From an uncultured Acidobacteriota bacterium (lineage in GTDB: Bacteria; Acidobacteriota; Vicinamibacteria; Vicinamibacterales; SCN-69-37): DNA of 64,000 nt. Location of the stretch: NCBI GenBank assembly GCA_963738485.1, contig CAVTWK010000005.1, positions 388,690 through 452,689 on the forward strand, written 5' to 3'. Below are positions 8,298 through 44,265 of this stretch, piece after piece. Below the pieces are notes generated by a model. The model saw nothing but the letters and a program-made list of their open reading frames with translations, was not told where the DNA came from and did no database searches. The translations under genes and the position numbers were made by a program. Position 1 is the first letter of the stretch, and each line of letters starts with the position of its first letter.

Positions 8298-8453
8298 GGT
8301 TAGACCGGGGGCTGACCCCATGGTCCGGCGACTTCAGCGTTTCTTCAGGCGGCGCTCACGACTCGACCCGCGGGCAGGTCCTACTGTGCACCGAGAGGTG
8401 CCCAATGTCCCTGATTCCCCGTCGTCTCACCCGTTCCGTTCGCCCCGTCTGTC

Positions 8454-8978: not shown

Positions 8979-9020
8979 CCCGCCTTCGCAGGGCTGCTCG
9001 CGCCCTGCTTCGGCGGGCAA

Positions 9021-9086
9021 GCCCGCCATGCCGGCGGTTCGGCCGGCTTCGGCGCAGAGGCCCGTCATGCCGGCGGTTCGGCCGGC
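9021..9086. repeat. 39-bp-spaced direct repeat (2 copies)
   Basis: gcccgccatgccggcggttcggccggc and gcccgtcatgccggcggttcggccggc. Confidence 0.7.
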
Positions 9087-9103
9087 GAAGGCGGGCACGC
9101 CCG

Positions 9104-9820
9104 TCAGGCCGGCCGGACGAGCATCTCCTCGACGATGACTCGGGCCGGGAGCGTGAGGCAGAAGAGGACACAGTCGGCGACGTCGTCTGGCTGCATCATC
9201 CGCTCGCGGGCCTCGGCTGAGGGTGGCTGCGGCCGTCGTTCCAGAAGGGGCGTATCGATGTCGCCGGGGAAGATGGCGCACGCGCGAATGCCGCGGCCGC
9301 GTTCCTCGGCGTTGATGCTCTGCGTCAGACCGGTCAGGCCGAACTTGCTCATCACGTAACCGGGACCGGACTTGGCCGAGGCGATCTTGCCGGCATCCGA
9401 GATGATGTTGACGATGGTACCCGCGCCGGCCGCGCGCATGTGCGGGAGGACGGCCTGGGCGCAGTAGTAGGCCCCGTGCAGGTTGGTGCCGATCATCGCG
9501 TGGTAGTCGTCGAGCGAGAGCACGTCGAGTGAACGGGCCGGGACGTTGGTGCCGGCCGCGTTGACGAGGGCGTCCACGCGGCCAAAGGCCGCGTGGACGT
9601 CCTCGGCGGCGCGCGCGACGGCGGCCGCGTCGGTGATGTCGCAGGGATATGCCCGCAGCTGGCCGGCCGGTCGGCCGGCCAGCGCAATCGTCTCCGCCAG
9701 TGCGTCGGCGCGTCGCCCGAAGAGGGCGACGCGCCAGCCGCGCTCGGCGAGTTTCAGGGCGACGGCGCGGCCGACGCCGCTGCCGGCGCCGGTGACGAGA
9801 GCAGTGTGGGACTCAGACAC
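9104..9820 (-). CDS. SDR-family oxidoreductase
   Basis: Rossmann motif TGAGSGVGRA, the NAAG motif, and catalytic YVMSK (YxxxK). Confidence 0.9.
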   Translation of the reverse strand: MSESHTALVTGAGSGVGRAVALKLAERGWRVALFGRRADALAETIALAGRPAGQLRAYPCDITDAAAVARAAEDVHAAFGRVDALVNAAGTNVPARSLDVLSLDDYHAMIGTNLHGAYYCAQAVLPHMRAAGAGTIVNIISDAGKIASAKSGPGYVMSKFGLTGLTQSINAEERGRGIRACAIFPGDIDTPLLERRPQPPSAEARERMMQPDDVADCVLFCLTLPARVIVEEMLVRPA

Positions 9821-9829
9821 GGGACGATG

Positions 9830-10175
9830 ATAAACGGGCTACGGGAAACAGCCTACGGGAGACGGGCTACGGCGGACGGACGACGGGAAACAGCCTACGG
9901 CCTACGGGAGACGGGCTACGTCAGACGGCCTACGGCCTACGGCAGACGGCCTACGGCCTACGGTAGACGGCAGCCCGCGCGACAGCAGACGGGCGACGAA
10001 GCAAGGTACACGCACAGGGGGCCGGCTCGTCGAGCCGGCCCCCTGTCGTTTCCGCTGTTCCGCTGTCGATGGCCGTAGCCTGTAGGCCGTGAGCCGTCGC
10101 CCGTGGCCCGTCTGCCGTAGGCCGTAGGCCGTCTGCCGTAGGCTGTAGCCCGTAGGCGGTCTGCCGTCTCCCGTC
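9830..10175. repeat. inverted pair of heptanucleotide arrays (ACGG-type then CCGT-type) around a GC hairpin
   Basis: 9833-9985 reads ctacggg aaacagc ctacggg agacggg ctacggc... 10066-10175 reads ccgtagc ctgtagg ccgtgag ccgtcgc ccgtggc ccgtctg... The central hairpin is CAGGGGGCCGGCTCG/CGAGCCGGCCCCCTG at 10015-10045. Confidence 0.9.
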
Positions 10176-13374: not shown

Positions 13375-13583
13375 GGCTACGGCAGACAGACGACGGTCTA
13401 CGGGAGACGGTCTACGGCACGGGGCCGACAGCAGACAGGCGACGGCAGAACACGGGAGATGGCTGGCGACTGGCGGCCGCAGGCTGTTGCCGCTGTAGGC
13501 CGTGGGCTGTTGTCGCCCGTTTGCCGTCGCCCGTCCGCCGTAGCCTGTTGGCTGTTTGCTGTTGCCCGTTTGCCGTCTGCCGA
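13375..13583. repeat. inverted pair of heptanucleotide arrays
   Basis: 13375-13470 is ACGG-type (ctacggc agacaga cgacggt ctacggg agacggt ctacggc). 13490-13583 is CCGT-type (ccgctgt aggccgt gggctgt tgtcgcc cgtttgc cgtcgcc...). The pair abuts the M23 stop codon. Confidence 0.85.
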
Positions 13584-16323: not shown

Positions 16324-16420
16324 CGACGGGCTACGGCAGACGGGCTACGGTAGACGGGAGACAGCCCACGGCCTACGGCCGACAGGCCCACGGCCCCCCG
16401 GCCACGATAACGGGGCGACG
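16324..16420. repeat. heptanucleotide array, ACGG-type, about 12 units
   Basis: gacgggc tacggca gacgggc tacggta gacggga gacagcc cacggcc tacggcc gacaggc ccacggc. It fills the gap between the convergent glgC and kinase stop codons. Confidence 0.8.
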
Positions 16421-22119: not shown

Positions 22120-22290
22120 ATCCTCGCGTCGAGCTTCGCCCCACGTCGGCTCCGCGGTGAGCCCAGCCCTACTTCCTCCGAGGCCTCCGTGGTGAGCCCC
22201 GTGTCTGGCTCTGCGTGCTCCGTGAGCTCCGCGGTGAGCCCGTGTTCTGCTCCGCTCGCTCCGTAATCCCCGCGGTGAACCCGAAGGGCT
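22120..22290. repeat. CTCCG(C/T)GGTGA(G/A)CCC repeats x4
   Basis: gctccgcggtgagccc, cctccgtggtgagcccc, gctccgcggtgagcccg and ccccgcggtgaaccc at about 35-40 bp spacing, between the convergent rnd and permease stops. Confidence 0.7.
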
Positions 22291-23738: not shown

Positions 23739-24433
23739 GCGTGCGCCTCCGTGCCCGTCTCACTGATGATGCGTCCGTCCAGCATCGTGATCGTCCGGCG
23801 CGCGTAGGTGGCGGCGAGGTTCGCGTCGTGCGTGACCATGATGACGGTCTTGCCCTCGCGTTCGTTGAGTGTGGTCAGCAGCGCCATGATCTCGCGCGAC
23901 GTGCGGCTGTCGAGGTTGCCTGTCGGCTCGTCGGCGAGCAGCAGCTGCGGGTTGTTGGCGAGGGCGCGCGCGATGGCGACGCGCTGCTGCTCACCGCCGG
24001 AGAGCTCCTTCGGCCGATGCTTCTGCCGTCCGCCCAGGCCGACCGACGTCAGCAGGTCTTCGGCGCGCTTCGCGCGCTCGGCCTTCGGCATCTCGGCGAA
24101 GACCATCGACAAGGCCACGTTGTCGGTCGCGCTCATCGTCGAGATCAGGTTGAAGGACTGGAAGATGATGCCGACGGCGTGCCGGCGATACAGGCTCAGC
24201 GCCGCGCTGGGCAGCGTCGCGAGATCCTGCCCGGCGACTTCGAGCGAGCCCGACGTTGCCCGGTCGAGACCCGCGAGCAGATTGAGGAGCGTGGACTTGC
24301 CGGATCCGGATGTGCCGACCAGGGCGATGAACTCGCCCGGCTCGATCGTGAACGACACGCCGTCGAGGGCACGGACGGTCGTCTCGCCCATGCGGTAGTG
24401 CCGAGTCAGGTCGCGCGCGGCCAGATGCGGCAC
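23735..24433 (-). CDS. ABC transporter ATP-binding protein (MacB/LolD type)
   Basis: Walker [10 protein letters not shown], signature [15 protein letters not shown], Walker [14 protein letters not shown] 4-nt overlap with the permease start indicates an operon. Confidence 0.95.
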
Positions 24434-24435
24434 CG

Positions 24436-24526
24436 ACAGAGCATACAGCCTACGGGAGACGGTCTACTGCCTGCGGTAGACCGTCTACAGCCTACCGTAG
24501 CCGGTAGCCCGTTGACCGTCTCCCGT
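24436..24526. repeat. short heptamer-family segment with internal hairpin
   Basis: cagcctacgggagacggtctac tgcctgcg gtagaccgtctacagcctaccgtagccggtagcccgttgaccgtctcccgtc. The stem is GAGACGGTCTAC/GTAGACCGTCT. Confidence 0.7.
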
Positions 24527-24919
24527 CTAACGCACTCGTCTGTCCGACTCGACGAGGATCACCGCGCCGGTGATCGGCAGCTTGATCAGCGCGCCGAGCG
24601 GGCCGAGGTTCAATGCGTCGCGCACCGTGCCGACGACGCGCACGTCGGCGCCACGGCGCGGCACGCCGCGTTCGGAGACGACCCAGATCTGCGCCGGATC
24701 GATCGCCACCCGGTAGGCGCCGCGATTGCCGACCGAGTAGCTGTCCACGACGCGGCCGCTGATCTGAACGTCGCTGTTCCGGTAGCGATACGGATCGTCG
24801 AGGACATGCGAGATGCGCCGGCTGGCGCAAGCCGTCGCGCCCAGCGCCACGAGGAACGCCAACGTGGTGAGACCGACCGCACGCCTGAAGGGCGAGGAGG
24901 CAATCGAAGGGGCTGACAT
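24527..24919 (-). CDS. small lipoprotein, hypothetical
   Basis: ATG 24919 gives MSAPSIASSPFRRAVGLTTLAFLVALGATAC, which is lipobox-like. The rest is beta-rich sequence, possibly OB-fold-like. Confidence 0.6.
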   Translation of the reverse strand: MSAPSIASSPFRRAVGLTTLAFLVALGATACASRRISHVLDDPYRYRNSDVQISGRVVDSYSVGNRGAYRVAIDPAQIWVVSERGVPRRGADVRVVGTVRDALNLGPLGALIKLPITGAVILVESDRRVR

Positions 24920-25027
24920 GACCTTCGCTATTGCGGAAATCGTGCCAGCCTCATCGGCCATCTCCGGCGCGTTGTGCTGGCCCGCGCCACGTGACAACAC
25001 CCCTGGATTGCCTAACTTGTCCTCGCC

Positions 25028-25465
25028 CGGGGACGTCGTGGACTTCTGCGACGCTCCGGGACTGCGGCGTGATTGCCGGGGTCTCCAGCGTCCGTGCAGC
25101 CCGTCGGCACCTCAAGTCTCTTTCACTCCCGCACTTCGGCGTCAATGCCAGCACTTGAGCGACAGTTCCCGCACCTCTGCGCGAACTCCAGCACTTCAGG
25201 CGCGGTCCCGGCCTCCAGCGTCAGTTTCGGGACCTGAGCGTCAGCCTGCACCTCAGCGTCAGGTCCAGCACTTCTGCGTCAGGACCAGCACTTCAGCGCC
25301 GGCCCCGGACTAGGGCGTCAGCCTGCACTTCACCGTCAGGACCAGCACATCAGCCGCGGTCCCGGACTTCAGCGTCAGCCCTGCACTTCACGTGCTTGTC
25401 AGGCCAGCACTTCGCGCGGAGCGCGAAGCACTTCGAGCCCTTTTCACCCAGCACTTCCCGCGTCA
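25028..25465. repeat. array of about 21 units at about 20-bp spacing, core (C)CNG(C/G)AC(T/C)TC(A)GCGTCAG
   Basis: ACTTC-type cores fall at about 25042, 25061, 25109, 25133, 25153, 25173, 25193, 25211, 25232, 25250, 25270, 25290, 25309, 25327, 25347, 25366, 25385, 25409, 25430 and 25454. Confidence 0.8.
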
Positions 25466-25469
25466 GCGC

Positions 25470-28258
25470 CTATTGTGCCGGCCGATAGATCCGCACGTTC
25501 TGAATCTGCAACGGTCCGAGTCCTGCCGCCGCCGCCGTCAGCGTGATGCGCACGAACTTCGCGTTCGTCGGTGAGAACGAAGCCGTCGTGATCGTCGAGA
25601 CCGTGCCTTTCGAGCAGCGGCTGACTCCAGGTCTTGCCGTCCGTGGAGGTCTGCACCTGGAACTCGCGCAGGACCGACGGGCGCGGCGGGTGCCGCCGGT
25701 GGTGCCCCCGCGGCTGGTGCCCCCGCCGCCGGTGGCGCGCCACCACCACGCGCACCGCCCCCGCGACCGCCGCCCGGGGCGTTGAACTGCACCTCCGAGA
25801 TGCGCATCGCCTGCGGCAGTTCGACCTGCACCCACATGCCCGGCACCTGCGGCTCAGCCGACGTCCACCCGATGATCGTCAGCGCCCGGTCGGCCGCCGC
25901 CGTGTTGTGGCTGGCGGACGCCTTCCACGTCTGCTCGATCGGCAACAGCACCGGCAGTGCCGTCGCGATTTCCGGCGCCGTCCACGGCGTCTTGCGATTC
26001 ACGCTCGCGGCCCGCACACGCGCGACGTCCTCCGGGGTGACGAAGGACCCGGTGTTGCCGAAGTCGTTGCGCACGTAGGAGGCGATCGCCGCGACCCAGT
26101 CGTCCTTCTGCGCGCCCATCGGCACCATGACGTTGGTGAACGTCTTGTCGTCGAGCGGCCCGGTCAGGCCGTGCAGCAGCACCTTGATCACATAGTCGCG
26201 ATGGCCCTGCACGCGTGGCGAACCGGCGAGCGACGGACCCATCATCGTGCCCGGCGCCGCGCCGGCCATGGGCGCGCCTCGGCCATCATCGCCATGGCAC
26301 GAGAAGCAGACCTCGCGGTAAATCGTGCCGCCGCGCTGCAACTGGTCCTGCTCGGCAGGGTTGATGCCTGCCGCGCCGCGTCCGCGCGCGCCGGCCGCGA
26401 GCATCAGCTTGCCGATCTCCTGGATCCCGCGCGACTTGTTGGCCTCCATCGTCGCCTGGATGACGGCGGGCGCATCCGCGACCTTCAGCACGTTGATCGT
26501 GAGGATGCCCTGCAGCGCGACGTCCACGTCGCTGTCCTTCGTCGCCGCGCGATAATCGGCGTCGAACGAGCGGTCGCCCTGCTTGTACAGCGTCTCGCTG
26601 GCGCGGATCGCCTGGATGCGCATGCGTGGATTCGGGTCCTTCATGGACGCGCGGACCAGCGCGGCGTCGAGTGCGCCCAGGCCTTCGAGCGTCCACATCG
26701 CGTGGAACCTGGCGAGCAGATTGGTCGATGACGTCGCCATCGTCCGCAGCGCCGGGACGACGGACCTGTCCTGTCGCAAGACGAGCGTGCGCTGCGCGGT
26801 GTCTCGCCACCAGCCGTTGGCGTGGGTGAGGTGCTGCACGAGCTGCGTAGGCGTCTCGCTGTACATCCTCGGCTTCGTCATGTCGAGCGCGATGGCGGGG
26901 AGCGCGGGCTGTCCGGGAATCGGCCGGCTCGCCGCGGGGCCAACCGGGATGCCGGGGAACTCGGGCGTGCCGTCGAAGCGCAGTCGCCAGATGCGGCCGT
27001 GGTGAATGACTTTGTCGAGCTGGTACTGGAAGATCTTGTGGCGCAGATACGAGTTGGCGCGCGTCCACTCGCCTTCCTGGATGATGCCGCGATACATGTC
27101 CGCGATGTAGACGGTGCCATCGGGCGCCGTCTTGATGTTCACCGGCCGGAACAGCGGATCGGAGCTGAGGATGAACTCGGACTTCGGATACACGTTCTTG
27201 AGCTGGGTCAGCCCGTCGGTCTTCACGATGTCCGTGCGCCGGATCAGCCGACCGACCGGCTCGGTGTAGAGCAGGTCGCCGATCAGATCCTCGGGGACGC
27301 GGTGGCCACGCACCATGTCCTGACCGCCGGTCGCGGTTGCGTGATTGACCACGCCTGTCGGGACGCGCACGCGGCTCATGCCGCCCTGCATGTCGCCCAG
27401 GCCGACGATCGGCCAGACGATGTCGAACTCGGGTTCGTATTCGTCGGCGATGCGGTAGGCGCCGTACTGGATCGGCACCTGGAAGTTCAGCGGGCCGCGC
27501 TCGCAGCCCGCGCACGTGAACCACATCTTGCCGTCGTCGTCCTGCGTCAGGCCCCACTGGCCGCCGTTCGAGCCGGTGGCTTCGCGGATGATGCCGGTCG
27601 GCGTCCAGCGGAAGCGGAACGAGTTGTAGGTGCTGTAGATCCAGTTGTCGAGGCCCCAGACGAACCCGCTCTGTTCGTGCTCGAGGTTGCCGTCACGGCC
27701 GATGCCGACGCCGCTGTAGAAGATCTCGCGCTTGTCTGCCACGCCGTCGCCGTTGGTGTCCGTCAGCTTGATCACGTCGTCGGACGCGGTCTCGTTGGTC
27801 AGGATGGAGTTGGCGTCGAGCGGCAGCACCATCCGCGGCAGCACGAGCTTGTCGGCGAAGACGACCTTCTTGTCGAACGTGCCGTCGCCGTTGGTATCTT
27901 CCCAGCGGCTGATGCGGCTTTCCGGCGCGTGCTGGTTGGTGCCCTCGACGTCAGGCATGTAGGTGACGAACTCGCAGATGTACATGCGACCCAGGCCGTC
28001 GAACTCGATGACCGCGGGCGTATCGATGTCCGGGTCGGAGAGGACCAGCTCCATGCGGTAGCCCGGCGGGAGCAGGAACGTCTTCGCCTGCTCGGCAGCG
28101 GTCTTGGCCTTGATCGGATCCTTCGGGCCGAAGTCTGCGCGCGTGGACGGAATCAGCGGGTAGGGCTGCGACTGACCGAGCATCGAGATGCTCGCGACAC
28201 TGACCAGGCCAAGGGCCAGCATCCAGACACGGGGGCGCGACGAGGGGCTGAGGCGCAT
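25470..28258 (-). pseudogene. PVC-type membrane-bound-dehydrogenase-like heme-binding protein with C-terminal discoidin-like domain; 3' end frameshifted
   Basis: Signal/anchor MRLSPSSRPRVWMLALGLV. It has a dehydrogenase-like propeller region, HEAT-like repeats and the cytochrome c motif CFSCHGDDG. The last ~70 codons (SVLREFQVQTSTDGKTWSQPLLE, then GTVSTITTASFSPTNAKFVRITLTAAAAGLGPLQIQNVRIYRPAQ*) sit in two other frames, with joins near 25683 and 25609. Confidence 0.75.
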
Positions 28259-28330
28259 GACTGCACGTCTCCTAGAGGAATCCGATCGAACAGGATTCGA
28301 TATGGAACCGATTCCATCAAGTTCTAGCAC

Positions 28331-29030
28331 AACAGACGGCGGACAGCCTACGGTGGACGGCTCACGGACGACGGCTCACGGGCTACGGCGGACAGGCTAC
28401 CGCCGACGGCCTACGGGCCACGGCTCACAGGCTACGGCAGACAGACGACGGCTCACCAGCTACGGCCTACGGCAAACAGGCTACAGACGACGGACGACGG
28501 ACGACGGGGGACGGCAGACAGAACACGGCTCACCGGCTACGGACGACGGCCAACAGGCTACGGACGACCGCCTACGGCCTACGGCCCACAGATACGGACG
28601 ACGGACCACCGCAGACGGGCTACGGTGGACGATCGCGGCTCACTGGCTACTGCCTACGGCTCACGGGCTACCGCAAACAGGTTACAGACGACGGACGACG
28701 GGAGACCGCAGGCCGGCTCCGGTGGACAGCAAACGGCTCACGGGCGACGGCAGACGGACGACGGCTCACGGGCTACTGCCGACAGAACACGGCAGACAGG
28801 CTACGGACGACGACGGACGACGGGAGACAGCCTACGGCGGACGGCTCACGGGCTACTGCGGACAGCAGACGGCTCACGGGCTACTGCCTCACGGCAAACA
28901 GGCTTCGGACGACGGACGACGGACGAAGGACGACAGGCTACCGGGGACTACGGCAGACGGGCCACGGCGGACGGGCTACGGCCTACGGCACACAGGGTAC
29001 GGACGGGAGACAGACGACCTGCGGTTCACG
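28331..29030. repeat. heptanucleotide array, ACGGNNN orientation, about 100 units
   Basis: It parses in register as acggcgg acagcct acggtgg acggctc acggacg acggctc acgggct acggcgg... with only occasional 1-nt register slips. Confidence 0.9.
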
Positions 29031-29039
29031 GCATAGGTG

Positions 29040-29160
29040 TGGACCTGGACGTCAGCTCCGGGACTTGCGCGAGCGTAGCGAAGCTGCGGGACTTCAGCGT
29101 CAGTTCCGGGACTTCTGCGAAGCCTGAGAAGTGAGGCGAAGCCCCCGGGACTTCTGTCCC
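29040..29160. repeat. GGGACTTC-core repeat cluster (4 units)
   Basis: ctccgggacttgcgcgagc..., gctgcgggacttcagcgtcag, ttccgggacttctgcgaagcc, cccccgggacttctg. It lies directly beside the big heptamer array. Confidence 0.75.
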
Positions 29161-30954
29161 TACACATCCAGCCCGATCGATCGCATGAGCGCCACGGCGT
29201 TGCTCGTCTGCACGACGCCGGGACGAAGGCGGTAATCGAATGTCATCACTCCGTCGCTGAACTGGTCTTCGAGGTGCATGTTCGTCGCCTTCTCGCCGAG
29301 TTGATCTGCGATGGCGCCGAGCGCCAGATCGTGGGTGGTGACGATGCCGACCGCGGCCTTCGCAATGAGGCCGGTGAGGAGCGCGGCAGCACCCTGGCGG
29401 CGATCGTGGGAGTTGGTGCCCGAGAGGATCTCGTCGAGCAGGAACAGCGCGTGCCCATCGTGCGCGTCCACCAGATCGACGATGGCCTTGAGGCGTGTGA
29501 TCTCTGCGTAGAACCGCGACTTGCCATCCGTGAGCGAGTCGTTCACGCGGATGGACGCGCCGATGGCCAGCCGCGTGAGCGTGAACGAGGAGGCCCGCAC
29601 CGGCGCACCCATCTGGGCCAGCACGACATTCAGCCCGAGGGCGCGCATCAGCGTGCTCTTGCCAGACATGTTGGATCCACTCACGACGAGCAGCTGCGGA
29701 TCGGCGCCGCGACCGCCGAGGCTGACGTCATTGGCGACCGCCGACCGCGGCAGCAGGGGATGGGCCATGCCCAGCGCCGCCACGTGGGCGGGGCCGTCAA
29801 CGATCGTCGGATAGACGTGATCCGGATGCTCAGCCGCGAAGGCCCCGAGCGCGAGGAGGGCGTCGAACTCGCCGATGACGTCGAGCCAGCGGGGCACGTC
29901 GGTTGAGAGCCGCGTGCGCCAGGCGTCGATGGCCAGCGCCATCTGCGTGCCCCAGAAGACGATGGCCGCCGGGATGGCCACGATGATGTTGCTGCGCGAG
30001 GCGAGGAGCGCGCCCAACTGGTCGAGTCGTCCGATCTCAGCGGACGCGGGACGATGCGTACGCGCCAGCGCTTCCCGCAGCGCCTGCAGCCGCGGGCTCG
30101 TGAAGTGCTCGTGTTCGACGACGCGCAGCAGCGAGGCGAAGAGATCGAGGTCATGGGCTGCTTCGTCCACCGTGCCGATGATGACGGACACGCGCGGGCG
30201 CAGGAACAGCACCCAGGCGATCTGGATCACGAGCAGCACCGCGACCGATCGCGCGAACCAGACCGGCAGGTCGCCGTAGTACCAGGCCGCGAACGACCGT
30301 GGGGAGCACCACGGCCGACGCGAGCGCCATCGCGACGCGCGGCCACGGACGCGCCAGGATCGGCGGGGCCGCGGCCCAGGTGCGGAGCCGCGCCGCGTCG
30401 ATGCCGGCGCGCGGCAGGCCGTCGCCGGCCACCGCCATCGCTTCGCGCAAGTCGTGTCGCGCGGTGAGCTCGCGAACGGCCGCCTGCCGCTCCAGCAACT
30501 GGGCCGGGTCGGCCGGCGCAAGCAGCCAGCGTGTCAGCGTCTCCTGGCCCGCCTGCGTGCGCGTCGTCGCCAGCAGCTCAAACAGGCTGCCGCGGCCGAA
30601 GAGGTCGAGGTCCTCGGAGTAGAGATGCGCCTCGGGCCGGAAGCGCTCCCCGGGGTCCCCGTGGCCGATCCAGTCGTCGCCGATCCGGCGCAGGCCGCGC
30701 TCGTAATAGGTCGCGGCTGAACGCGCGCGGTCGCGCGCGGCGAGGACCCTGGCATGGTAGACCGCGATGACGATGAACGCCACGGCTGCGGCGAGGGCGA
30801 CCGGCAGGCCGCTCCAGCCTGAGATGAAGAGCGCGGCGCCCGCAAGGCCGACCAGCCCCAGGCGCAGGTACGCGACCTGGCCATGACGCCGATCCCGCTG
30901 GGCCGCCACCTGCCGAAGCTCGGCGAGCCGGGTTTGATATTGGCGCTCAATCAA
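29160..30954 (-). pseudogene. membrane-associated MutS-related protein (MutS domain V ATPase), frameshifted as assembled
   Basis: The C-terminus has Walker A SGSNMSGKSTLMRALG, Walker B LFLLDEILSGTN and TTHDL. The N-terminal half has TM helices (VAYLRLGLVGLAGAALFISGWSGLPVALAAAVAFIVIAVY). The join is near 30293. The start is either TTG 30954 or the upstream ATG 31068 inside a repeat element. Confidence 0.75.
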
Positions 30955-35301: not shown

Positions 35302-35347
35302 GGGGTCAGACCGGGGTCAGACCATGGTCTGACCCCGGTCTGACCCC
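35302..35347. repeat. perfect 46-bp palindrome (2x GGGGTCAGACC, AT centre, 2x GGTCTGACCCC)
   Basis: ggggtcagaccggggtcagaccatggtctgaccccggtctgacccc, in the divergent hicB / ECF sigma intergenic region. Confidence 0.85.
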
Positions 35348-39265: not shown

Positions 39266-39503
39266 CTCCCGTCTCCCGTCGCCATAAGGTCGCCCGTTGG
39301 CGGTTGCTCGTGTAGCCCGTCGCCCGTGGGCTGTGGTCTGACCCTGGTCGTCCGTCGCCCGTTTGCGGTACCCGGCAGCCCGTCGTCCGTCGTCCGTCGT
39401 CGGTCGTGCGTGGGCCGCAGGCCGTCTCCCGTGGGCCGTCTTCCGTAGCCCGTCTGCCGTCTCCCGTCTCCCGTCCGTAACCACCCTCCGTCACCGCCCG
39501 TAG
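39266..39503. repeat. heptanucleotide array, CCGT-type, about 34 units
   Basis: ctcccgt ctcccgt ... gcccgtc gtccgtc gtccgtc gtcggtc gtgcgtg ggccgca ggccgtc tcccgtg ggccgtc ttccgta gcccgtc tgccgtc tcccgtc tcccgtc. Confidence 0.85.
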
Positions 39504-42448: not shown

Positions 42449-43810
42449 ATGATTGAGAGACACGCACGGGGGCCGGCGCCGGTTGGCGCCTTCCCCGTGC
42501 GTGTGGCACGCTCGCGCGTCGTCTCCGCCATTCTCGTCGCCGCCCTCGTCAGCCTCACATCCCGTCCGCACGCCCAGCGCACCACGATCGCGCCAGCCGA
42601 CCTGTCAGGCCAGTGGGAGACCGAGCACGTCTCGGCCCCTGTCTCGGCGTTGTTCGACCACGCCGCCCTGAAACAGATCATCGCTGCCCTGCCGTCCTCC
42701 GGGCCGATTCGTACGACCCAGGTCGGCTCGTCGCTCGAAGGACGCGAGATCTGGGACGTCACCTTCGGCACCGGCGCCACGACCGTGTTGATGTGGTCGC
42801 AGATGCACGGCGACGAGGCCACGGCGACCTCGACGCTCATCGACCTCTACGCCTGGATTGGGCGCCATGCGGCCGAGCCCGCTGTGCGCCAGCTCCTGGC
42901 TGCCCTCACCGTGCACACCGTGCCCATGCTCAATCCGGACGGCGCCGAACGCTGGCAGCGCCGCAACGCCCAGGGGCTCGATCTCAACCGCGACGCCCTG
43001 CTTCTGCAGGGCCCCGAGTCGCAGCTGCTGAAGGGGCTGCGCGATCGCCTGGAGCCGGCCGTCGGCTTCAACCTCCACAACCAGAACTGGCGCACCTCGG
43101 TCGGCGATCCACCGCAGGCCGCGGCGATCTCGCTGCTCTCGGTGGCCGGCGACGAGGCGCGGACGATGACGCCTGGCCGCGTCCTGACGAAGAAGCTGGG
43201 GGCGGTCATCCGCGACGCGCTCGAACCATGGGCGGCCGGGCGGATGGGCCGCTACGACGACAGCTTCGAGGTGCGCGCCTTCGGCGACAACCTCACGAAG
43301 TGGGGCACGCCCGTCCTGCTCATCGAGACAGGGCCCTGGCCGGCCGTCGATCCCGACCCGATGCTCGTGAAGCTCAACTTCATTGCGCTCGTCACGGCCC
43401 TGCAGGCGCTGGCCGACGGCGGGCCCGGCGGTGCGCTCGACCGCGCGGACCCGGCCCGCTACGACTCGCTGCCCGAGAACGACTCGCGCCTGCTGCACAC
43501 GATCATCCGGAACGTGACCATCATCACGCGCGAGGGCGCGGCGCCCTTTGTCGGCGACGTGGGCCTGATCGCGACGCGCCGCGTCCGGACCGACGACGGC
43601 GTGCGGCGGCTGGCGCAGTCGTTCGCGATCGATGACCTCGGCGACCTGCGCACGCTGGGTGCGCTCTTCGAGGTGGACGGCACCGGCCTCCGCCTTGCGC
43701 CTGCGGGCGCCACGCCGTTGCTGCCCAGCCAGCCCGCGGACCTGGTCCTGACGGGCCCCGACGGCACGGTGGTGCGCCGGTTCCAGGCCGAGACGGTCTC
43801 ACGGCCTTAG
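42449..43810 (+). CDS. M14-family zinc carboxypeptidase
   Basis: WSQMHGDEATAT (HxxE zinc motif), VPMLNPDGAERWQRRNAQGLDLNRD, and a signal-like N-terminus. Confidence 0.8.
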   Translation: MIERHARGPAPVGAFPVRVARSRVVSAILVAALVSLTSRPHAQRTTIAPADLSGQWETEHVSAPVSALFDHAALKQIIAALPSSGPIRTTQVGSSLEGREIWDVTFGTGATTVLMWSQMHGDEATATSTLIDLYAWIGRHAAEPAVRQLLAALTVHTVPMLNPDGAERWQRRNAQGLDLNRDALLLQGPESQLLKGLRDRLEPAVGFNLHNQNWRTSVGDPPQAAAISLLSVAGDEARTMTPGRVLTKKLGAVIRDALEPWAAGRMGRYDDSFEVRAFGDNLTKWGTPVLLIETGPWPAVDPDPMLVKLNFIALVTALQALADGGPGGALDRADPARYDSLPENDSRLLHTIIRNVTIITREGAAPFVGDVGLIATRRVRTDDGVRRLAQSFAIDDLGDLRTLGALFEVDGTGLRLAPAGATPLLPSQPADLVLTGPDGTVVRRFQAETVSRP

Positions 43811-44265
43811 CGCCCGGGACCTGGCCGAAAGCACCGGGACTTCGCGCGGAGCCGGGCGGGGCGAGGCGAAGCCTCCGGGACTTGAGCGAGCGAAGCGAGC
43901 AGCCGGAACCTGGGCGAAGCACCGGGACTTCGCGCGAAGCGAAGCGAAGCCTCCGGGACTTCAACGAGCGCAGCGAGCGCCCGGAACCTGGGCGAGAGGC
44001 ACCGGGACTTCCTGCGGAGCCGGGCGAGGTGAGGCGAAGCCTCCGGGACTTCAACGAGCGCAGCGAGCGCCCGGAACCTGGGCGAGAGGCACCGGGACTT
44101 CCGTGCGGAGCCGGGCGAGGTGAGGCGGAGCCTCCGGGACTTCAACGAGCGCAGCGAGCACCCGGGACCTGGGCGAGAGGCGCCGGGACTTCCGTGCGGA
44201 GCGGGTTGGCGAGGCGAAGCCTCCCCGACTTCCGCGGTGCGGGACCGGCTTTCCGGCCTCGGGTT
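43810..44265. repeat. tandem repeat, about 90-bp unit x about 5
   Basis: The unit is GCCCGGAACCTGGGCGAGAG GCACCGGGACTTCCTGCGGAGCCGGGCGAGGTGAGGCGAA GCCTCCGGGACTTCAACGAGCGCAGCGAGC. CCGGRACCTGG anchors fall at about 43813, 43903, 43980, 44070 and 44161. Confidence 0.85.

Follow-up and report, generated by a model that had tools for sequence, protein, structure and literature searches.

The closest known kinds of repeat to the one described below are the BOX elements of pneumococci and the minisatellite-MITE BrickBuilt. BOX elements of Streptococcus pneumoniae, which have the plan boxA-(boxB)n-boxC, are small, dispersed intergenic elements with a tandem array of short modules (PMC3049150). BrickBuilt, from Porphyromonas gingivalis, is a spacer-less tandem repeat of a 23 nt unit with many intergenic copies per genome; its single direct array is flanked by a leader and a tail subunit whose ends are small inverted repeats, and promoter activity has been demonstrated for it (PMC4596501). 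The REP unit is an imperfect palindrome with a stem of 5-13 bp and a terminal unpaired GTAG or CGTC tag (PMC3733652). How does an array of 20-bp units between two acidobacterial genes compare with these?

In the 64-kb stretch of DNA that was analyzed (the window), positions 25036-25466 are a tandem array of 21 head-to-tail units (a core-anchored count), all on the + strand, antisense to the two genes on either side. Their consensus is CCnG[C/G]ACTTCaGCGTCAG, also written tCCaG[C/G]ACTTCaGCGTCAGg, and the unit cores start at 25040, 25059, 25080, 25107, 25131, 25151, 25171, 25191, 25210, 25230, 25248, 25268, 25288, 25307, 25325, 25345, 25364, 25383, 25407, 25428 and 25451. The first-pass annotation had described about 21 consecutive units of roughly 20 bp, and both number and length hold. 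Tandem Repeats Finder (TRF), applied independently, returns a period of 20 with 13.6 copies at 25127-25390. The unit spacing given in the first pass, 18-24 nt, is right in being about 20, but the true range is slightly wider, at 18-27 (18 twice, 19 five times, 20 seven times, 21 twice, 23 once, 24 twice and 27 once; the mode is 20). TRF also finds two higher-order periods, one of 57 bp with 81% matches and one of 77 bp with 73%. The 57-bp period corresponds to three units, and in the best-preserved central block (25187-25391, + strand, placed by TRF periods, per-unit mismatch counts and PWM scores) it consists of three unit subtypes: ccaGCACTTC..., cccGGACTTCagcgtcag and cctGCACTTCa(g/c)cgtcagg. 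The best units are central (25206-25379); those at either end have at least three mismatches or indels, and cores have decayed at the edges and in c-type units (GGCCTCC and GGACTAG, for example). A homogenised centre with degenerate edges is what is expected of unequal-exchange dynamics.

The motif is significant against shuffled sequence. With up to three mismatches allowed, the pattern GSACTTCNGCGTCAG has 42 matches, compared with 22.9 +/- 4.7 in shuffles, and none of 100 shuffles reaches 42. Matches with two mismatches or fewer number 12, of which 11 lie in 25131-25378 and one at 29089. PWM matches above 14 bits, sought on both strands of the whole 64 kb, fall only inside 25036-25379 or 29085-29124 and always on the + strand. 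Within the array the information content is 1-2 bits in the core and the flanking CC and GCG, and 0.1-0.5 in the linkers. The array thus has the head-to-tail unit of 10-100 bp, beyond chance, that defines a minisatellite or VNTR. A CRISPR array was rejected because the units are contiguous, their 4-6 nt 'linkers' belonging to the repeat subtypes.

Chance similarity, an assembly artefact or disguised coding sequence can be regarded as effectively refuted. It is true that the region, in DNA with 68% G+C, accommodates ORFs of 60-166 aa, and that repeat copy numbers can be misjudged if the assembly comes from a metagenome. The motif statistics, however, are far beyond those of shuffles, the same family occurs in independent assemblies, and no reading frame could be maintained over a period of about 20 bp that is irregular and not divisible by 3. 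Since the units differ among themselves, neither is the array a collapsed or inflated perfect repeat.

The spacer that holds the array is 550 bp long and lies between two minus-strand genes, running from a stop codon at 25470-25472 to an ATG at 24917-24919. The earlier statement that the array fills most of it proved accurate (431 bp, or 78%). The upstream gene (25470-28330, - strand) encodes a DUF7133 / HEAT / cytochrome c protein with a discoidin-like C-terminus, and its stop codon is 3 bp from the last array unit. The downstream gene (24527-24919, - strand) encodes a 130-aa lipoprotein with no Pfam family and is the first in a lipoprotein / ABC ATPase / FtsX permease cluster. Outside the array, as context, is a sigma-54-like -24/-12 element, cTGGCACGATTTCCGCAAT (24930-24948, - strand), that ends 10 nt before the lipoprotein ATG. 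Further upstream is a promoter-region block, GAGGACAAGTTAGGCAATCC (25005-25024, - strand), which resembles GAGGACAGACAGGGCAACC of three orthologous loci (L001, L050 and L052); from this block to the start of the array is about 12 bp. The array is therefore placed exactly between the stop codon of the upstream gene and the promoter block conserved ahead of the downstream one. A scan of 24300-25900 found no terminator and no sigma-70-like promoter in the spacer. An intrinsic terminator (G+C-rich hairpin plus U tract) was rejected on the basis of this empty scan and of the lack of a stable local hairpin in the array.

Seven loci orthologous to that of the lipoprotein gene were compared, four with 67-77% amino acid identity (L001, L050, L051, L052) and three with about 50% (L010-L012), so the comparison of array presence and absence spans these distances. 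None of the seven spacers, which are about 30-210 bp long, contains array units. In a five-way alignment of the window with L001, L050, L051 and L052, the promoter positions TGGCA.GATT..CGCAA.AG are invariant, and the array ends just outside the block conserved upstream of the promoter. An enhancer (UAS) array serving the sigma-54-like promoter was rejected on these grounds: the promoter is invariant in five taxa, and units lie upstream of it in none of the relatives. Positional conservation in relatives, the lack of which the first-pass annotation had named as a refutation, is absent at this locus, and this counts against an array of binding sites. What it had offered as the other possibility, a decayed minisatellite, is borne out by the head-to-tail order, the three-unit higher-order period, the homogenised centre and decayed edges, and the absence from all seven orthologous loci.

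Neither strand of the array has any notable self-structure. Its two halves fold with z = -0.2 and +1.1, and RNAs of the whole spacer with z = -1.5 (+ strand) and -3.6 (- strand); the unit is neither palindromic nor self-complementary, and there are no short inverted repeats within units. Rfam 15, which includes acidobacterial motifs, gave no match at gathering score in the window and none at E <= 1 within 24400-29300. A phage origin was also rejected, the viral-contig scan having given a single chance match, inside a coding region. REP/BIME/REPIN elements, which RAYT transposases mobilise, resemble the family to which the array belongs in being high-copy, extragenic and located after genes, and in forming long hairpins as inverted dimers (PMC3733652, PMC3116915, PMC2817692). 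The CGTC of REP also occurs inside the unit here (GCGTCAG). Identity with REP or REPIN was nevertheless rejected because the units are not palindromic, lack a GTAG tag and are arranged as direct tandem arrays; no RAYT (IS200/IS605-like) gene was seen in the 64-kb window or the short loci. The earlier remark that this is not a REP hairpin thus applies to the present locus, which is non-palindromic and without a fold, but not to its relatives, which are commonly hairpin-forming foldbacks.

Two other clusters of the unit occur in the window, where the first pass had noticed the core at 29040-29160 and throughout 43810-44265. The second cluster (29041-29156, + strand) has five units, two of them strong (29085 and 29105), and adjoins the stop codon of a MutS-domain gene (29160) and a 650-bp heptamer array (28336-28990). 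The third (43811-44233, + strand) is of a related subfamily, with GCGARGC linkers between successive cores of the type CCGGGACTTC or CCGGAACCTG, and starts directly 3' of the stop codon of an M14 peptidase gene. Much of it (43944-44232) is a 91-bp higher-order repeat present 3.2 times with 93% identity, which points to recent block duplication. All three window clusters abut stop codons. The first two clusters run antisense to transcription and the third runs sense; among relatives both orientations occur.

Beyond the window, the array belongs to a dispersed intergenic repeat family of Vicinamibacterales-type Acidobacteriota. Acidobacteriota/Vicinamibacterales MAGs (L007, L009) carry its unit, mostly with GTACTTC cores, as do at least 20 metagenome contigs from soil, out of 37. 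The window unit logo CCnG[C/G]ACTTCaGCGtCag matches that of the relatives, CccGTACTTCaGCGtcAG. The relatives were retrieved with a core-containing pattern, so that core conservation among them is partly ascertainment. Their commonest form is a foldback of about 150-250 bp in which two arrays of 3-5 units are inverted; one-direction arrays of 3-8 units with higher-order periods of their own are found at four loci (L040, L031, L047 and L013). The elements sit in spacers; most begin 5-35 bp 3' of a stop codon, and the genes on either side are often convergent. Many diverged copies are present per genome, and copies from different loci, be they on one contig or on separate ones, have 83-89% identity over about 185 bp. 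With three clusters in 64 kb and similar copies on contigs, the family is dispersed, and lacks coding capacity, as MITEs do. The foldback relatives also have inverted arms, whereas the window array, which runs in one direction and has no inverted partner, lacks the terminal inverted repeats of MITEs. As with minisatellites, presence and copy number vary: seven orthologous loci lack the array, and unit numbers differ among the elements next to ssb (see below). The repeat family is apparently undescribed in soil Acidobacteria. A literature search of limited coverage on repeats of Vicinamibacteria or Acidobacteria found no account of it, which does not prove novelty, and a search with the motif string matched only primer sequences.

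We consider it most probable that the array is fast-evolving, satellite-like or miniature-mobile-element-like non-coding DNA and not a conserved array of regulatory sites, and that it is an unusually long, one-armed expansion of the 'A unit' (CC-GNACTTC-nGCGTCAG) of a dispersed MITE/BOX-like intergenic family; to this reading as a whole we give a probability of about 55%. Like BOX elements, members of the family vary in module copy number, are predicted to form stem-loops and encode no transposase (PMC3049150). They differ from BOX in module length (20 bp, boxB being about 45 bp), in sequence and in phylum; in addition, their tandem modules form both inverted arms and there are no boxA/boxC-like terminal modules. 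Elements in relatives have a conserved centre and no distinct termini. The window array departs further in being one-armed and much longer (21 units), and what flanks it is a stop codon and a conserved promoter block, not terminal modules of the BOX or BrickBuilt kind. With BrickBuilt the family shares a tandem unit of about 20 nt, multiple intergenic copies and a limited host range (PMC4596501). In this case the differences are that the arrays are either two and inverted or single and bare, and that the sequences are unrelated. Mycobacterial MIRUs have units of 46-101 bp and lie within operons, all oriented alike, with start and stop codons that overlap. MIRU-VNTR loci resemble the present family in their minisatellite-like direct arrays, many intergenic sites and variable copy number, but we know of no foldback forms among them. 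Foldback (FB) transposons, which are eukaryotic, kilobase-scale and in some cases equipped with coding inserts, likewise have long inverted arms built of short tandem subrepeats; we saw no sign of homology or of a shared mechanism. Integron attC sites were rejected, since no R'/R'' core sites were seen by eye, and the elements often lie between convergent genes and not in one-directional cassette arrays.

The foldback relatives are long and extremely stable hairpins, with z = -11 to -24, and there are 11 compensatory pairs among 64, indicating that for some of the family pairing is important or at any rate preserved. Might the window array then work as RNA, in the 3' UTR of the upstream gene or the leader of the downstream operon? 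That arrays begin right after stop codons suggests that they are probably co-transcribed, and such an RNA could be a protein sponge (CsrB/RsmZ-like), a processing or stability signal, or a partner for trans pairing with complementary arrays. We nonetheless think a role of this kind, in any of these modes, improbable. The window array has neither a partner arm nor a significant fold, and no promoter-like or terminator-like signal accompanies it. No Rfam family corresponds to it, the foldback relatives giving only sub-threshold matches to generic miRNA hairpins. Orientation relative to transcription differs among the clusters, and compensatory changes in near-perfect palindromes may come from copying, without selection. 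The sense RNA is moreover rich in G (165 G, 117 C), making a Rho-utilisation site unlikely.

The core is kept whatever the linker subtype (A, B or GCGAAG) and from taxon to taxon. Its being better kept than the linkers implies some constraint, which could come from a mobilising enzyme, a host protein or base pairing. In a 'heterodimer' subfamily the two arms are complementary in their cores only: the B arm has a period of 23-24 bp and the A arm one of 19-20 bp, and they share only the core, inverted. Arms of this type look more like oriented recognition sites than a simple palindrome. There is also some persistence of position. An element 3' of ssb is found at the same gene end in three organisms (L009, L027, L034), being only 75% identical and differing in unit number where the ssb coding sequences are 97% identical, a sign of rapid turnover inside the element, and an element at the end of a DUF4175 gene is shared by L007, L023 and L031. 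Such persistence would fit a function such as that of a 3'-end element.

It is accordingly possible, if rather doubtful, that the array is a set of DNA sites for a sequence-specific protein, with the core CC-GNACTTC(-nGCGTCAG) as the putative site. Such a protein, loaded after stop codons, might tentatively be assigned a role as a roadblock, an insulator or an organiser of the nucleoid, and at this locus it could conceivably part the upstream gene from the sigma-54-type promoter. Besides the far better conservation of cores than of linkers across subtypes and taxa, the differently built heterodimer arms that share only inverted cores, and the persistence downstream of ssb and the DUF4175 gene, this reading can draw on the spacing of about 20 bp and on the way arrays abut stop codons, in three of three window clusters and most relatives. 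It is at odds, however, with the absence of the array from every orthologous locus of the downstream gene, with an orientation relative to transcription that is not fixed, and with the decay of cores at the array edges and in c-type units. Nor is the spacing constant (18-27 bp here, and 19-20 versus 23-24 bp in the two arm types), which would make the sites spiral around the helix and not occupy one helical face. Nothing in the window or the loci ties the arrays to a particular gene or candidate protein, and no par or rep genes flank any cluster. Iteron-like and centromere-like arrays also consist of many short oriented repeats (7-43 bp) in direct or inverted blocks and could load protein cooperatively; parC, sopC and the omega-protein heptad arrays adjoin partition or replication genes at one site of a replicon. 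The arrays here are instead dispersed at many chromosomal gene ends, with variable spacing and no partner gene found. In a more specific and equally tentative form of the protein-binding proposal, the 7-nt core (GNACTTC, usually after CC) would be the putative site of a novel Vicinamibacterales protein; the arrays, direct or in two head-to-head blocks with linkers that may differ altogether, would be a new class of bacterial cis-element on which this protein is loaded at gene ends. They might then serve, again doubtfully, as roadblock terminators or insulators, or belong to a domesticated transposase system comparable to REP-RAYT. Were the core indeed read by such a protein, the 21-site array would be its largest loading platform known and would insulate the sigma-54-type promoter from the upstream gene.

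The same features of the core could also be those of transposon ends. The ends of Tn7, Mu and CACTA elements have subterminal transposase sites that are direct repeats within an end, the two ends being inverted. The family could be a relic or derivative of a non-autonomous transposon with several such sites at its ends, the core being read by the transposase, a proposal that we rate as possible only at rather long odds; in the window, and with the same reservation, one end would have been amplified in tandem. Dispersed copies of about 185 bp with 83-89% identity fit this, as do the near-constant order of cores (GAAGTAC...GTACTTC in at least 15 elements, the reverse in one), B arms (23-24 bp) and A arms (20 bp) that have the core alone in common, and single genes flanked by elements in both orientations (L025). 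On the other hand, no transposase or recombinase gene adjoins the units or is flanked by them at any locus examined. The genes enclosed by element pairs encode a secreted protein, a small Cys-rich protein, an AAA ATPase and a Big_2 protein, and are ordinary, the Cys-rich protein having been judged without a Pfam run. Target-site duplications were not recognisable at the hairpin boundaries of seven elements, and the available loci include no empty-site/filled-site pair with exact junctions. Given this lack of a transposase, of target-site duplications and of an empty-site pair, mobility of the family is something that we only infer. The long one-direction array is, besides, not itself an inverted-repeat element.

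If, as we prefer, the array is a satellite-like expansion of one arm of the family's elements, its history might run as follows. Mobilisation, or else ectopic recombination with another copy, would have seeded a short array in the spacer, and this array would then have grown through replication slippage or unequal recombination, in blocks of three units. Its centre may still be undergoing homogenisation as its edges decay. At this locus it would have no sequence-specific host function beyond some 430 bp of added spacer, separating the end of the upstream gene from the sigma-54-like promoter region.

Vicinamibacteria rank among the most abundant bacteria in soil and have barely been studied genetically; we know of no genetic tools for the phylum. 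Short-unit arrays cause breaks in short-read assemblies and swell the intergenic DNA, and as hypervariable loci they can serve as typing markers. A core read by a protein or a mobilising enzyme would give entry to the biology of gene ends or to a new mobilisation system. If the family is only satellite DNA, it would still be a clear bacterial case of foldback and higher-order-repeat dynamics, a topic usually raised in connection with eukaryotic satellites.

Some smaller points concern the window as a whole. The core that the first-pass annotation had placed at 8323 is a single degenerate unit, GCGACTTCAGCG (at about 8328), which falls below the PWM threshold and has no evidential value. The reading frame of the gene upstream of the array apparently shifts near 25650-25700. 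The largest spacers of the window (at 9.8-10.2, 13.5, 24.9-25.5, 28.3-29.2, 39.4 and 43.8-44.3 kb) all hold short-unit tandem arrays, which are of the 20-mer family and the heptamer family.

The first-pass annotation described 25028-25465 as some 21 consecutive units of roughly 20 bp, and core anchoring bore this out exactly. The array (25036-25466) consists of 21 consecutive units, all on the plus strand, with 7-nt cores of GNACTTC type starting from 25040 to 25451 at a spacing of 18-27 bp (mode 20); it is the longest among the unit arrays seen. Tandem Repeats Finder reported a period of 20 bp x 13.6 copies at 25127-25390, and higher-order periods of 57 bp (81% matches) and 77 bp (73%). The unit logo is CC-n-G-[C/G]-A-C-T-T-C-a-G-C-G-t-C-a-g, in which the core carries 1-2 bits, the flanking CC and GCG about 0.8-1.3 and the linkers 0.1-0.5; the central units are best and both edges are degenerate. 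In this window of 68% G+C, the 15-nt pattern GSACTTCNGCGTCAG occurs 42 times with up to three mismatches (22.9 +/- 4.7 in shuffles) and 12 times with up to two, 11 of these in the array and one at 29089. When the 64 kb were scanned on both strands with a PWM, all matches above 14 bits fell within 25036-25379 or 29085-29124. The ~20-bp period with irregular spacing rules out a coding sequence; the possible ORF across the array gives a low-complexity translation.

The array covers 431 of the 550 bases of a spacer between two minus-strand genes and its units are antisense to both; sense RNA of the array would contain GAAGTGC and be G-rich. Downstream, a minus-strand gene (24527-24919) codes for a lipoprotein of 130 aa that has no Pfam family; genes for an ABC ATPase and for an FtsX permease come after it. 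The upstream gene (DUF7133 / HEAT / cytochrome c protein, minus strand) terminates at 25470-25472, its stop codon lying 3 bp away from the last unit. Its discoidin-like C-terminus (ending in FVRITLTAAAAGLGPLQIQNVRIYRPAQ, also KFVRITLTAAAAGLGPLQIQNVRIYRPAQ, then stop) is in another frame and runs to 25470, and the 930-aa ORF terminates at 25538 in an Arg/Ser-rich tail, so that the ORF is apparently frameshifted near 25650-25700. The apparent frame change (region 25538-25835) lies near a G+C-rich repeat coding for Gly, Pro and Ala (25682-25776), and is explained by a sequencing error or by a genuine frameshift.

Does the array carry a recognizable signal? An Rfam search of the array region gave no match, whether at gathering score or at E <= 1, and a scan of the locus found no terminator-like or sigma-70-like site. 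The fold of the whole spacer is unremarkable (z = -3.6 on the minus strand, -1.5 on the plus strand), and z is -0.2 and +1.1 for the array's halves. The units are not palindromic and have no terminal GTAG or CGTC tag, and so fail the definition of REP/REPIN elements (PMC3733652).

Besides the lipoprotein itself, a collection of 5.8 billion proteins contains 15 homologues of it. Contigs were read for seven of these, four with 67-77% amino acid identity to the window protein (L001, L050, L051, L052) and three with about 50% (L010, L011, L012). The array was found at none of the seven loci, whose spacers are ~30-210 bp long and whose upstream genes are not the same. By the first-pass annotation's own measure, this lack of positional conservation refutes a conserved array of sites, although these relatives are not close. 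In a five-way alignment of the window with L001, L050, L051 and L052, TGGCA[C/T]GATT..CGCAA[T/G]AG is invariant and ends 8-12 nt ahead of the lipoprotein start codon (window 24930-24948, minus strand; L001 ~853-872, L052 ~383-402, L050 ~94-113, L051 ~411-430). By its sequence, this element resembles a sigma-54 -24/-12 promoter that leaves hardly any leader. A second block, GAGGACA..A.GGCAA.C (GAGGACAAGTTAGGCAATCC in the window versus GAGGACAGACAGGGCAACC in L001, L050 and L052), is shared by the window and three relatives ~60 nt further upstream. The array starts ~12 bp past this block, indicating that it was added to the stretch that separates the upstream stop codon from the still intact promoter region.

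Two further clusters lie in the window. Cluster 2 (29041-29156) has five units, lies against the stop of a MutS-domain gene and runs on into a 650-bp array of heptamers. Cluster 3 (43811-44233), which begins directly past an M14 peptidase gene's stop codon, represents a related subfamily in which GCGARGC linkers separate one CCGGGACTTC or CCGGAACCTG core from the next (GCGAAG-type linkers are also found in relatives L015 and L047); the cluster is built as 3.2 copies of a 91-bp higher-order repeat with 93% identity, and its fold is not notable (z = +0.6). The array and both clusters each adjoin the stop codon of a gene transcribed into them, the array and cluster 2 being antisense to the incoming transcription and cluster 3 sense. 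This inconsistent orientation argues against a cooperative array on one helix face, as does the variable spacing, 18-27 bp here and 19-20 versus 23-24 bp between arm types of the family.

A two-unit pattern, scanned against one genome per species, matched seven places, two of them with clear arrays, both in Acidobacteriota MAGs (L007, uncultured Acidobacteriota; L009, Vicinamibacterales). A slightly looser pattern retrieved 37 metagenome contigs, mostly from soil or rhizosphere and of 63-71% G+C, at least 20 of which carry unit arrays; a scan of viral contigs gave a chance match only. The unit logo in relatives is CccGTACTTCaGCGtcAG, the window genome having C or G at core position 2. Since the query contained the core, its invariance among retrieved loci partly reflects ascertainment; neither the additional units nor the second arm type had been prescribed by the query. 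The commonest architecture is three to five GAAGTAC+linker units, a short centre and three to five linker+GTACTTC units, and this order is seen in at least 15 cases and the reverse in one. In a 'homodimer' subfamily the arms are complementary over their full length and folds are extreme (-0.6 to -0.85 kcal/mol per nt, z = -11 to -24); the consensus has 64 pairs, 11 with compensatory double changes (e.g. TGAC/GTCA versus TATC/GATA linkers). In a 'heterodimer' subfamily a B-arm (GAAGTACGGnGGAnAAGAACCnn, period 23-24 bp) stands opposite an A-arm (GTACTTCnGCGTCAGTTCC, period 20 bp), the arms are complementary only in the 7-10 nt cores, and folds are modest (z = -2 to -7). Unidirectional arrays of three to eight units also occur (L040, L031, L047, L013, L045), some with higher-order periods of 40-60 bp. 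Family copies at separate loci are 83-89% identical across ~185 bp. As placed by a crude GC3-based gene caller, the elements are intergenic; they typically start 5-35 bp past a stop codon, and convergent genes often flank them. Where two elements enclose genes, these are ordinary ones with no transposase among them, and no target-site duplications are recognisable.

In the literature searched, there was no description of this 20-bp unit family. The pneumococcal BOX element contains a variable-number tandem boxB array inside a dispersed stem-loop-forming element (PMC3049150), and BrickBuilt of P. gingivalis is a 23-nt minisatellite in a MITE, with ~19 copies per genome, always intergenic (PMC4596501). 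Unlike these, the present family is without distinct terminal modules and its inverted arms are themselves tandem arrays.

Some positions persist while internal structure turns over quickly, as two cases indicate. A heterodimer (B-arm/A-arm) element lies directly downstream of ssb (C-terminus ...DDDIPF) in three different organisms (L009 5790-6130, L027 1830-2066, L034 11925-12144). Between L027 and L034 the ssb coding sequences are 97% identical and the elements only 75%, with different unit numbers and centres; between L027 and L009 the figures are 81% and 78%. Likewise, in three organisms the 3' end of one and the same DUF4175 gene carries an element (L007 3480-3740, L023 1250-1470, L031 1700-1870), that of L031 having another arm arrangement and, in addition, a canonical hairpin rich in G+C (ctcgggcgagcggc...gccgctcgcccgag).

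Satellite-type dynamics are indicated by the make-up of the array, with units in direct tandem, a higher-order period of three units, a homogeneous middle and degenerate ends, and by a sister array that was duplicated recently. The absence of the array at orthologous loci and its lack of fold or signal agree with this. We accordingly favour, with a probability of roughly 0.55, the reading that the array is satellite-type DNA, representing a single arm (the A unit) of a foldback family that is dispersed and MITE/BOX-like. A short array would have been seeded in a tolerant gene-end spacer and enlarged by replication slippage or unequal recombination. This leaves unexplained why the core is far better conserved than the rest, across linker subtypes and taxa, and why heterodimer elements keep only their cores complementary and inverted. 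Both features could be explained were the core the site of a putative host DNA-binding protein, which we consider unlikely, or were it read by a putative mobilising enzyme with several subterminal sites, a doubtful proposal too, but one compatible with the favoured reading as an account of origin. RNA or DNA pairing could also explain them, and is quite improbable for this locus.

Tandem arrays are present in all of the window's largest spacers. A 650-bp array of ~90 nnnACGG heptamers (28336-28990; CTACGGC, GACGACG, CTCACGG, AGACGGC and others) together with cluster 2 fills the entire spacer between the MutS-domain and DUF7133 genes; it recalls the STRR heptamer repeats of cyanobacteria, although the genome here has 68% G+C. 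Heptamers of the same family form a foldback at 9839-10167 (RNA fold z-score -14.6), with ~19 heptads (CTACGGC/AGACGGC), next a perfect G+C-rich hairpin (~10017-10047, cagggggccggctcgtcgagccggccccctg) and last the complementary heptads (GGCCGTA). Short heptamer-based arrays lie in both orientations in other spacers (13512-13582, 16325-16403, 24444-24505, 39380-39475), one of them (3 x 21 bp) within the 93-bp gap between the lipoprotein and ABC ATPase genes. Unrelated tandem repeats are found at 9007-9113, 22185-22283 and 35304-35347 (39 bp x 2.7, 41 bp x 2.4 and GGTCAGACCCC x 4). The relatives' spacers likewise hold other short-unit families (L009 4913-5168, L006 1017-1080, L021 3404-3446, L045 2263-2381), among them the heptamers AATCTGC / AGATTCC (in opposite orientation), AATCCTC and TCAGTCG and a distinct 20-mer, TCGTGTGGGTCCGTGGCCCA, so that short-unit intergenic arrays are apparently a general trait of the clade.
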